Shown here: one piece after another, positions 24,461 to 24,664 of the stretch
Position numbering within the stretch: the first letter of the stretch is position 1
Layout: each line of letters begins with the position of its first letter
Origin: a virus
Virus genome (UHGV): UHGV-0017337
DNA: 43,119 nucleotides
Direction: 5' to 3' (one strand)
Translations under genes and position numbers: made by a program
The notes under the pieces: generated by a model
Databases searched by the model: none
Told to the model about the DNA's origin: nothing
Seen by the model: only the letters and a program-made list of their open reading frames with translations

Positions 24461-24568
24461 TATACTACTCTTCTATTTATCTATGTTTATTATGTTTTCT
24501 ATAAAAAGATAATAAAAAGAATAAGATAGAAAGAGGTTGGTCAAAAAATAAACATGACGAAATCTATG
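24461..24568. repeat. Dispersed ~108-bp AT-rich element, copy R1 (partner R2 at 42155-42263)
   Basis: The two copies share a 32-bp identical core, ctataaaaagataataaaaagaataagataga, and similar flanks (..ggttggt.aaaaa.taaacatgacgaaatctatg). Confidence 0.85.
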
Positions 24569-24582
24569 AATCTATGATCTAC

Positions 24583-24664
24583 TAATACACGTTCTGTATT
24601 AGCTGCAACTCAAAATCATGAAACCTATGTAAAACCATGTGTAGCTAATACAGAACGTGTATTA
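24583..24664. promoter_or_regulatory. Pair of inverted 19-bp dyad operators TAATACA-N5-TGTATTA
   Basis: taatacacgttctgtatta at 24583-24601 and taatacagaacgtgtatta at 24646-24664, with centres 63 bp apart. The pair lies directly upstream of promoter P2. Confidence 0.65.

Follow-up and report, generated by a model that had tools for sequence, protein, structure and literature searches.

The Duplicated Element and Its Setting

The viral genome fragment UHGV-0017337 (43,119 nucleotides, the whole of which is called here the window) holds two copies of an AT-rich element, R1 and R2, each located ahead of a late gene unit on the minus strand and adjoined by inverted-repeat sites (dyads). Its relatives are the 9NA-like siphophages of the genera Nonanavirus and Sashavirus, virulent phages of Salmonella and E. 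coli, some of which are under development for therapy; the top match is Sashavirus BDX09P1, 94.5% identical over the R1 region. Since 9NA-like genomes have 53–58 kb, the 43-kb window represents about three quarters of a genome of ~57 kb. The minus strand carries the late genes (terS, terL, portal, head morphogenesis, head, and tail), in a series broken by small-gene cassettes on the plus strand, and this interruption of the late genes by opposite-strand cassettes was already remarked at the first sequencing of 9NA (PMC4153490). In the literature searched on 9NA-like phages, which did not cover the in-depth 2019 genome and packaging study, nothing was found on R, promoters, origins, regulation, or cassette timing. 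That study, by Zeng et al. 2019, is said to be an in-depth analysis of these genomes with a mapping of 9NA packaging, and possibly describes the repeats or the pac position already.

R1 and R2 contain a direct repeat of 100 nt (24469–24568 and 42165–42264) with 90% identity and a spacing of 17,696 bp, in agreement with the first-pass annotation of two direct copies about 17.7 kb apart; a profile made from both copies widens them to the limits given in Table 1. The identical 32-bp core that had been ascribed to both, CTATAAAAAGATAATAAAAAGAATAAGATAGA, indeed occurs exactly twice in the window (24499 and 42195) and not at all on the other strand. The GC content of R is 22–24%, versus 43% for the window. 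R is separated from gene starts by 110–330 bp, with R2 located 253–392 bp upstream of terS, and the distances given earlier, 145 bp to the head operon start at 24316 and 271 bp to the terS start at 41884, were reproduced. The repeat and its accompanying dyads are genuine and far above chance.

Conservation of R in Related Phages

The window, BDX09P1, AVIO78A, PJ16, Sasha, and 9NA all have R at both positions and with one orientation, as do the distant metagenome contigs 057523 and 000047. The comparison with related phages that had been proposed as a check thus finds the pair at both positions in every relative examined (five phages and two contigs), and the location of R at the head of two late units holds, with constant orientation, in all genomes examined. 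Two sequence types can be distinguished. Type 1, with ATCTATGTT-type repeats, comprises R1 and R2 of the E. coli phages together with R2 of Sasha, while type 2, with three to four tandem TATCTATAC 9-mers, comprises both copies of 9NA, R1 of Sasha, and the copies of both distant contigs. Sasha consequently combines a 9NA-type R1 with an R2 of the E. coli-phage type.

In the 9NA-type lineages, orthologous R copies are 78–80% identical, whereas R1 and R2 of one genome share only 56%, which argues that the two sites are old and have been kept independently. The two copies in the E. coli phages share 84% identity and are both nearer the R1 type, so that the long near-perfect duplication is explained as a recent copy-over. 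All R copies have in common a segment of ~45 bp, consisting of a pyrimidine-rich lead-in, tandem 9–10-mers with ATCTATR, and an A-rich purine tract. Between the window and R1 of 9NA, 28 of the 32 core positions (counted on the alignment) are alike, compared to 74% for the whole region. A BLAST comparison of R2 with E. coli genomes and plasmids gave no match.

Several rearrangements were observed at these elements. R1 of PJ16 (20003–20151) has an 11-bp insertion repeating TTTATTATCTT, and the core of its R2 (37764–37902) is rearranged (AAAAGATATTATCTATAAAAAGATAATG), which suggests slippage among the internal short repeats. In the IMG/VR sample 3300030464, contig _000010 (15.7 kb) ends in R2 and contig _000003 (41.8 kb) ends at R1, their sum amounting to one genome, so that the assembly apparently broke at the repeated R element. 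A more distant relative, IMG/VR contig 3300036785_000282 (1960–2300), whose head protein shows 72% identity, lacks an R homologue; at the equivalent position, four or more GTTTCAC/GTGTCAC-type repeats come after an AT-rich stretch, and their TGTTTCAC half is close to canonical parS.

Base Composition, Curvature, and Hairpins

R1 and R2 contain the two lowest-GC 100-bp segments of the window (19–20% GC), R2 being the lowest and R1 the second, and the same is true of the complete BDX09P1 and Sasha genomes; both therefore have the AT-richness of an origin-type unwinding element. In a wedge model, used for qualitative prediction, both elements rank within the top 0.2% of curvature values, peaking at 24499 in R1 (top 0.1%) and at 42202 in R2 (top 0.2%), that is, at the sites where T-tracts turn into A-tracts.

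The internal inverted repeat of R gives a significant hairpin only in R1 of the window (z −3.3), the values for R2 and six copies of other phages lying between −1.9 and +2.2, and a hairpin or cruciform is hence not the conserved feature. R as a structured RNA or cruciform was rejected, the hairpin being unconserved and no Rfam family matching; an Rfam search of the whole window returned nothing at the gathering threshold. Scans for IHF sites and DnaA boxes revealed no convincing site in R, the DnaA-like matches corresponding to dyad half-sites and to the ACCCGTGG motif. Matches to the Fis consensus are found at 24539 (GGTCAAAAAATAAAC) and 42235 (GGTTAAAAAGTAAAC) and are missing in R2 copies of the 9NA type.

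The ATCTATR Boxes

Copies of the heptamer ATCTATR are few in these genomes and gather at R: the boxes within 350 bp of an R copy are 9 of 11 in the window, 8 of 11 in BDX09P1, 10 of 13 in Sasha, and all of those in AVIO78A (9/9) and PJ16 (10/10). Three boxes of the window (24389, 42073, and 42328) lie outside the duplicated segment and are inverted, and boxes recur in phages of differing dyad type. Both facts point to a binder that recognises one sequence throughout the phage group. Judging from sequence conservation, this binder may be TerS or a ParB-like protein, and a host factor would be an equally good candidate.

The ParB-like protein, which holds a GEHRLRG motif and is 91% identical among 9NA, Sasha, and BDX09P1, is encoded outside the part of the genome covered by the window (9NA gp81, 89–853; Sasha gp77). 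It combines a helix–turn–helix (HTH) with the GEHRLRG motif of the CTP-binding type and is conserved across phages with differing dyad types. We know of no target of such a ParB-like protein in a virulent phage. An exact scan of IMG/VR for the tandem-box pattern gave 76 matches, mainly minisatellites of giant viruses, and was uninformative.

The Dyads and the Neighbouring Putative Regulator Gene

Allowing up to two mismatches, the class TAATRCA-N5-TGYAYTA numbers 11 sites, of which two adjoin R1 and nine surround R2, the other 42 kb of the window having none; shuffled sequences give about two. The two TAATACA-N5-TGTATTA dyads described next to R1, with centres 63 bp apart, and the nine-copy array described at R2 are accordingly both recovered. 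The assignment of one dyad class to the two sites is borne out as well, as the type shifts jointly at R1 and R2 in the window together with AVIO78A and PJ16, in 9NA, and in contigs 057523 and 000047. In every dyad type R2 is bracketed by dyads; in the window these start at 42125 and 42278, with centres 153 bp apart. The plus-strand promoter by R1 has in four lineages a dyad centred 25–33 bp upstream of its −35 hexamer, and a similar distance (28 bp) is seen at terS, where the centre of the dyad at 41960–41978 is ~28 bp upstream of a TGGACA hexamer (41941–41936). The last dyad of the array right of R2 (42425) overlaps the −35 hexamer of the putative promoter of the next gene.

This gene, located right of R2, encodes a protein—here called the regulator—in which a variable N-terminus of ~60 residues precedes a central domain of strong conservation, and a repeat linker, again variable, leads to the conserved tail; only 10 homologues of it are found in 5.8 billion proteins. 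Its N-terminal 60 residues are predicted to form a four-helix bundle (pLDDT 76–91), and the structural model is suggestive of an XRE-like protein with an HTH-like N-terminal domain, putatively binding the dyads as a dimer.

The dyad type co-varies with the N-terminal domain of the regulator. The window, AVIO78A, PJ16, and Sasha share one N-terminal domain and TAATGCAC-N3-GTGCAYTA sites; 9NA and contig 000047 have a second one, with TAACAC-N-GTGTTA sites; contig 057523 has a third one, with TTACCA-N3-TGGTAA sites; and BDX09P1 has a fourth one, with a different array right of R2. Dyad type is identical at R1 and R2 in four of the six lineages. In BDX09P1, the N-terminal domain and the site array right of R2 are swapped within 39300–39885.

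Promoters and Promoter-like Motifs

A promoter family defined by TTTAAAATAATTCTTGAC has nine copies on the plus strand and stands at the start of nearly every cassette (14485, 24676, 28537, 29679, 31878, 32775, 36429, 38105, and 40694). On the late strand it has one full copy, at 24385, and two weaker ones, at 20446 and 2173. The copies at 14485, 29679, and 40694 carry in their spacer a dyad ATTACAC-N6-GTGTAAC, whose sequence looks like the operator of a different regulator.

The full late-strand copy (24385–24347, AAAATAATTCTTGACG-N17-TACCCT) is kept in the E. coli phages. With its weak −10 hexamer it is passed over by a generic sigma-70 scan, and the putative promoter of the regulator gene escapes the same scan because its −35 hexamer matches at only three of six positions. 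The earlier statement that the minus-strand late genes have no −35/−10 pair is only partly right, as it overlooks this family promoter.

Within R, sigma-70 sites do not exceed those of shuffled sequences (2 versus a mean of 2.2, and 1 versus a mean of 3.2); the sole sigma-70-like pair is TAAACA-N18-TATGAT at the right edge of R1, with 9 of 12 positions matching. A late promoter of the T4 type was considered and rejected: TATAAATA is exact only on the minus strand of R2 in the window, other copies having TATAAAGA, GATAAATAG, and GATAATAG. No gp55-like factor, sigma factor, or RNA polymerase is annotated in the relatives. In a profile search, R was absent from the terL, portal, head morphogenesis, tape-measure, and tail units.

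A further motif, ACCC(T)GTGGTAAAC, is located 40–55 nt upstream of the start codons of terS (41935–41913), terL (36407–36395), the first head-operon gene (24351–24338), and the tape-measure gene (14464–14452), all on the minus strand, and is also found before the regulator gene (42467–42479, plus strand). By its sequence it could represent an extended −10 (TGnTAAACT), and would be a candidate late-promoter or leader element. A loose scan for ACCCGTGGTAAAC is dominated by coding matches, so the motif is given without statistics and kept as a lead.

Since no consensus is found in R, promoter-like elements lie nearer the genes, and other late units lack R, R would be neither a core promoter nor an element of late units in general. 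Where the additional first gene of the head operon is missing, in 9NA and Sasha, the left edge of R1 is ~40 bp from the extended −10-like motif TGGTTAACT, with an ATCTATG box at −35, so that R1 may serve there as an upstream element of the head promoter.

A Possible Scaffold between Divergent Promoters and Its Alternatives

R1 and R2 are here tentatively interpreted as bent, box-bearing scaffolds, flanked by operators of the regulator, that would control divergent promoters without being promoters themselves, a reading held to be possible rather than probable. R would be the bent, easily melted core of a protein–DNA assembly. The ATCTATR boxes, spaced at 9–10 bp and followed by phased A-tracts, would offer a docking surface to a factor whose specificity is constant across the group. 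This might be a nucleoid protein of the host or, on the phage side, a conserved protein like TerS or the ParB-like one. Operators of the type-specific, XRE-like regulator would adjoin both R copies and bracket R2, and regulator dimers on these flanks, brought together by the bend, would govern transcription from the divergent promoters, namely terS versus the gene of the regulator itself at R2, and the head operon versus the plus-strand small-gene cassette at R1. The anatomy and conservation of R, its base composition, the clustering of the boxes, and the co-variation of site type with N-terminal domain are directly established; from them we infer a box-binding protein, the formation of a loop, and a direction of effect on each promoter. 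The former proposal of R as a shared late promoter or activator/bending module is retained as plausible in its second half and unsupported as to the promoter.

Several observations weigh against the scaffold. The most AT-rich spots of the genome, bearing tandem short repeats, fit an origin unwinding element at least equally well. The distance from dyad to −35 hexamer varies by 8 bp, which implies no fixed helical face, and the bracket around R2 (153 bp in the window, ~120–122 bp in 9NA) is in neither case a whole number of helical turns. The regulator belongs to no Pfam family and to a PHROG of unknown function, and the fold matches of its N-terminal domain, although only to XRE-type HTH proteins (DdrO, TP901-1 CI, CylR2, and P2 C), are non-significant (E ≥1.5). 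The curvature values, calculated by a wedge-model script written for this analysis with the parameters of Bolshoy et al. 1991, are qualitative. Finally, the dyads at R1 and left of R2 in BDX09P1 are still of the window type, and R1 of Sasha has sites of the 057523 type. No paralogue of the regulator that would explain these mismatched R1 sites was found in Sasha or BDX09P1, and both phages look, from their sequences, like recombinants with joints at R. The suggestion that the dyads couple early repression to late activation is therefore upheld only as to the shared dyad class, the R1 sites foreign to the resident regulator in these two phages indicating that such a coupling is not obligatory.

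The main rival of the scaffold would be a replication origin. R2, and perhaps R1, would then be the unwinding element, the dyads would be iterons, and the neighbouring gene would encode an initiator repressing its own promoter. We regard this as rather unlikely, even though no other segments of whole genomes are as AT-rich as R1 and R2, and tandem T-rich repeats of 9–10 bp stand there next to an array of nine 19-bp dyads, followed by a gene with the last site over its promoter. The build of the regulator resembles that of lambda O, in that an exchangeable DNA-binding domain at the N-terminus is joined to a conserved body, from which a flexible repeat linker leads to the conserved tail. The single strands of most R copies show unusually little structure (z up to +2.2), and negative supercoiling would build up at R from its position between divergent promoters. 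However, the regulator has no similarity to known initiators (Rep/O/DnaA-type) or helicase loaders, the DnaA-box and IHF-site scans of R were unconvincing, R1 has only two sites, which are of a foreign type in BDX09P1 and Sasha, and a constant orientation and place ahead of late operons would be unexpected for an origin. Cumulative GC and AT skew in the complete BDX09P1 and Sasha genomes tracks the direction of transcription (the minimum of Sasha falls at R1, the start of the long head–tail operon), and hence cannot decide the question. A mixed model, where R1 and R2 would be twin origin-like hubs at which an XRE-type protein of swappable specificity fires replication and times the late switch, with a ParB-like protein of the CTPase type or TerS on the boxes, is judged improbable.

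The location of R2 directly upstream of terS in all relatives also brings to mind the pac site, of which R2 would be the part recognised by TerS, through phased boxes in bent DNA, with R1 as a related inactive or auxiliary copy. Repeated boxes and a predicted bend are both present, ATCTATR is conserved across phages whose TerS proteins are also conserved (82–100% identical among relatives), and the box spacing of ~83 bp corresponds to ~8 helical turns across the bend. Moreover, the GenBank records of 9NA, Sasha, AVIO78A, and PJ16 all open inside R2, which may or may not reflect a mapping of ends. Yet the boxes cluster at R1 too, and every genome has two R copies where a single site would be expected; since 9NA is reported to yield one pac fragment (PMC4153490), the near-identical second copy weighs against a pac function, which we hold to be distinctly improbable. 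The mosaic joints that coincide with R, both in BDX09P1 (swap of regulator and array) and in Sasha (mixed R types), would be accounted for if R were only an AT-rich spacer that binds H-NS-like host proteins non-specifically and persists as a block where modules recombine. R is extremely AT-rich and curved, and H-NS prefers DNA of this kind. Such a passive role is very unlikely, given that the core and the boxes are conserved above the neighbouring DNA, that the boxes, as specific heptamers, are seldom seen in the rest of the genome, and that the orientation is constant in all genomes. Less credence still is given to R itself as the late promoter, with late transcripts starting inside R1 and R2 under a phage activator. 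The position and orientation ahead of two late units, the want of strong consensus promoters for the late genes, and the vicinity of R1 to the TGGTTAACT motif in 9NA and Sasha all speak in its favour; nevertheless, hexamers in R stay at shuffle level, TATAAATA is exact in a single copy, the family promoter and the ACCCGTGG motif are closer to the genes, the terL, portal, head morphogenesis, and tape-measure units do without R, and a dedicated sigma factor or RNA polymerase is unannotated in the relatives.

By this analysis the question of regulation in these phages is narrowed to two small regions, which hold the sole operators of a regulator of swapping specificity, the most meltable and bent DNA, and a conserved heptamer box. 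The same regions mark where modules recombine between phages, and if the R elements were true origins or pac sites, they would be relevant to phage engineering and to the risk of transduction.

Comparison with Known Systems

In phage phi29, p4 sites and the histone-like protein p6 act on curved DNA between the divergent promoters A2b/A2c and A3. R shares with this system the divergent early-type and late promoters, the few hundred base pairs of bent DNA between them, and the inverted-repeat dimer sites upstream, although the architectural partner would here be a presumed one. Unlike phi29, the window has, as judged from its sequence, no p4 or p6 homologue, the putative head-operon promoter has a −35 hexamer, and nine candidate operators are gathered at one site. 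In the Gal repressosome, GalR binds two operators 113 bp apart with HU at the apex. R2 is similarly bracketed by two dimer sites across bendable AT-rich DNA of ~120–150 bp (153 bp in the window and ~122 bp in 9NA); the gal loop, however, encloses promoters, whereas no promoter is detectable in R, the regulator is unrelated, and the loop is a proposed one.

The order of elements at R2 (AT-rich repeats, an array of 19-bp dyads, and a gene with an operator-covered promoter) is also that of the lambda origin and of iteron plasmids such as pSC101, P1, and RK2, and the co-variation of the specificity domain of the regulator with its sites recalls the lambdoid O proteins. The differences lie in the lack of O/Rep homology, DnaA boxes, and an IHF site, and in the existence of two copies, one of them with two sites. 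The lambda origin, moreover, lies inside the O gene, unlike R. Phages with two related origins are known, and oriL/oriR of SPP1 and ori/crr of P4 offer parallels for a second R.

SPP1 pacL and lambda cosB are, like R2, located just upstream of the small terminase gene and consist of short repeated boxes in bent DNA (the bend being predicted in the present case), but differ from it in that R has a near-identical second copy ahead of the head operon. Lastly, R resembles the upstream activating sequences (UAS) of the ilvPG type, in which AT-rich DNA destabilised by supercoiling precedes a promoter: here the most meltable DNA of the genome is found upstream of weak, G+C-rich −10 hexamers (TACCCT and GAAACT), between divergent units. 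Compared to a curved or Fis-dependent UAS, expected within about 150 bp upstream of its promoter, R1 extends from about −100 to −240 relative to the start of the minus-strand promoter, while R2 is at a larger distance from the putative terS promoter (about −200 to −330), and no IHF site was found.

Neighbouring Genes and Other Repeats

The coordinates of the features discussed are collected in Table 1. The product of the window terS gene matches Terminase_2 weakly, under the Pfam threshold, and no family match was found for the 122-residue product of the first gene left of R1.

Table 1. Elements, sites, promoters, and genes around R1 and R2 (window coordinates).
Feature	Position	Strand	Remarks
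R1	24442–24579	+	between minus-strand head operon and plus-strand cassette promoter; core 24499–24530
R2	42137–42276	+	second copy, between terS (minus) and regulator gene (plus); core 42195–42226
First gene left of R1 (122 aa)	23948–24316	−	in E. coli phages; absent from 9NA and Sasha
Family promoter, minus strand	24347–24385	−	AAAATAATTC; TTGACG (24375–24370), N17, TACCCT (24352–24347); faces head operon ATG 24316
ATCTATR box	24389–24395	−	left of R1, just upstream of the minus-strand promoter
ATCTATR boxes at R1	24479, 24562, 24570	+	pattern scan
Dyad a, TAATACACGTTCTGTATTA	24583–24601		abuts right end of R1
Dyad b, TAATACAGAACGTGTATTA	24646–24664		centre 31 bp upstream of −35 hexamer of the plus-strand promoter
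Family promoter P2, plus strand	24673–24714	+	TTGACG (24686–24691), N17, TATCTT (24709–24714)
terS	41249–41884	−	first gene left of R2; annotated as terminase small subunit in relatives
Dyads 41960–41978 and 41989–42007	41960–42007		between R2 and terS
ATCTATR boxes around R2	42073–42334	+/−	42073 (−), 42175 (+), 42193 (+), 42258 (+), 42328 (−); pattern scan
Dyad	42125–42143		abuts left end of R2
Six-dyad array right of R2	42278–42443		starts at 42278, 42299, 42331, 42355, 42386, 42425
Putative regulator gene promoter	42436–42464	+	TTGCAC, N17, TATGAT
Regulator gene	42496–43119	+	right of R2; runs off the window end

The window starts and stops (1–90 and 43051–43119) inside in-frame tandem repeats within genes, with units of 30 nt on the left and of 21 nt (EAPVARV) on the right, at which the contig probably broke. 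A third coding repeat, of 3 × 21 nt, is located at 24071–24140, inside the first gene left of R1. In addition, two plus-strand genes 17 kb apart (14745–15655 and 31920–32611), a spacing close to that of R1 and R2, have common repeat units of ~190 nt with 60–79% identity and, by sequence, look like paralogous multi-repeat proteins. In Bas82, the counterpart of 14735–15838 is annotated as an endonuclease.

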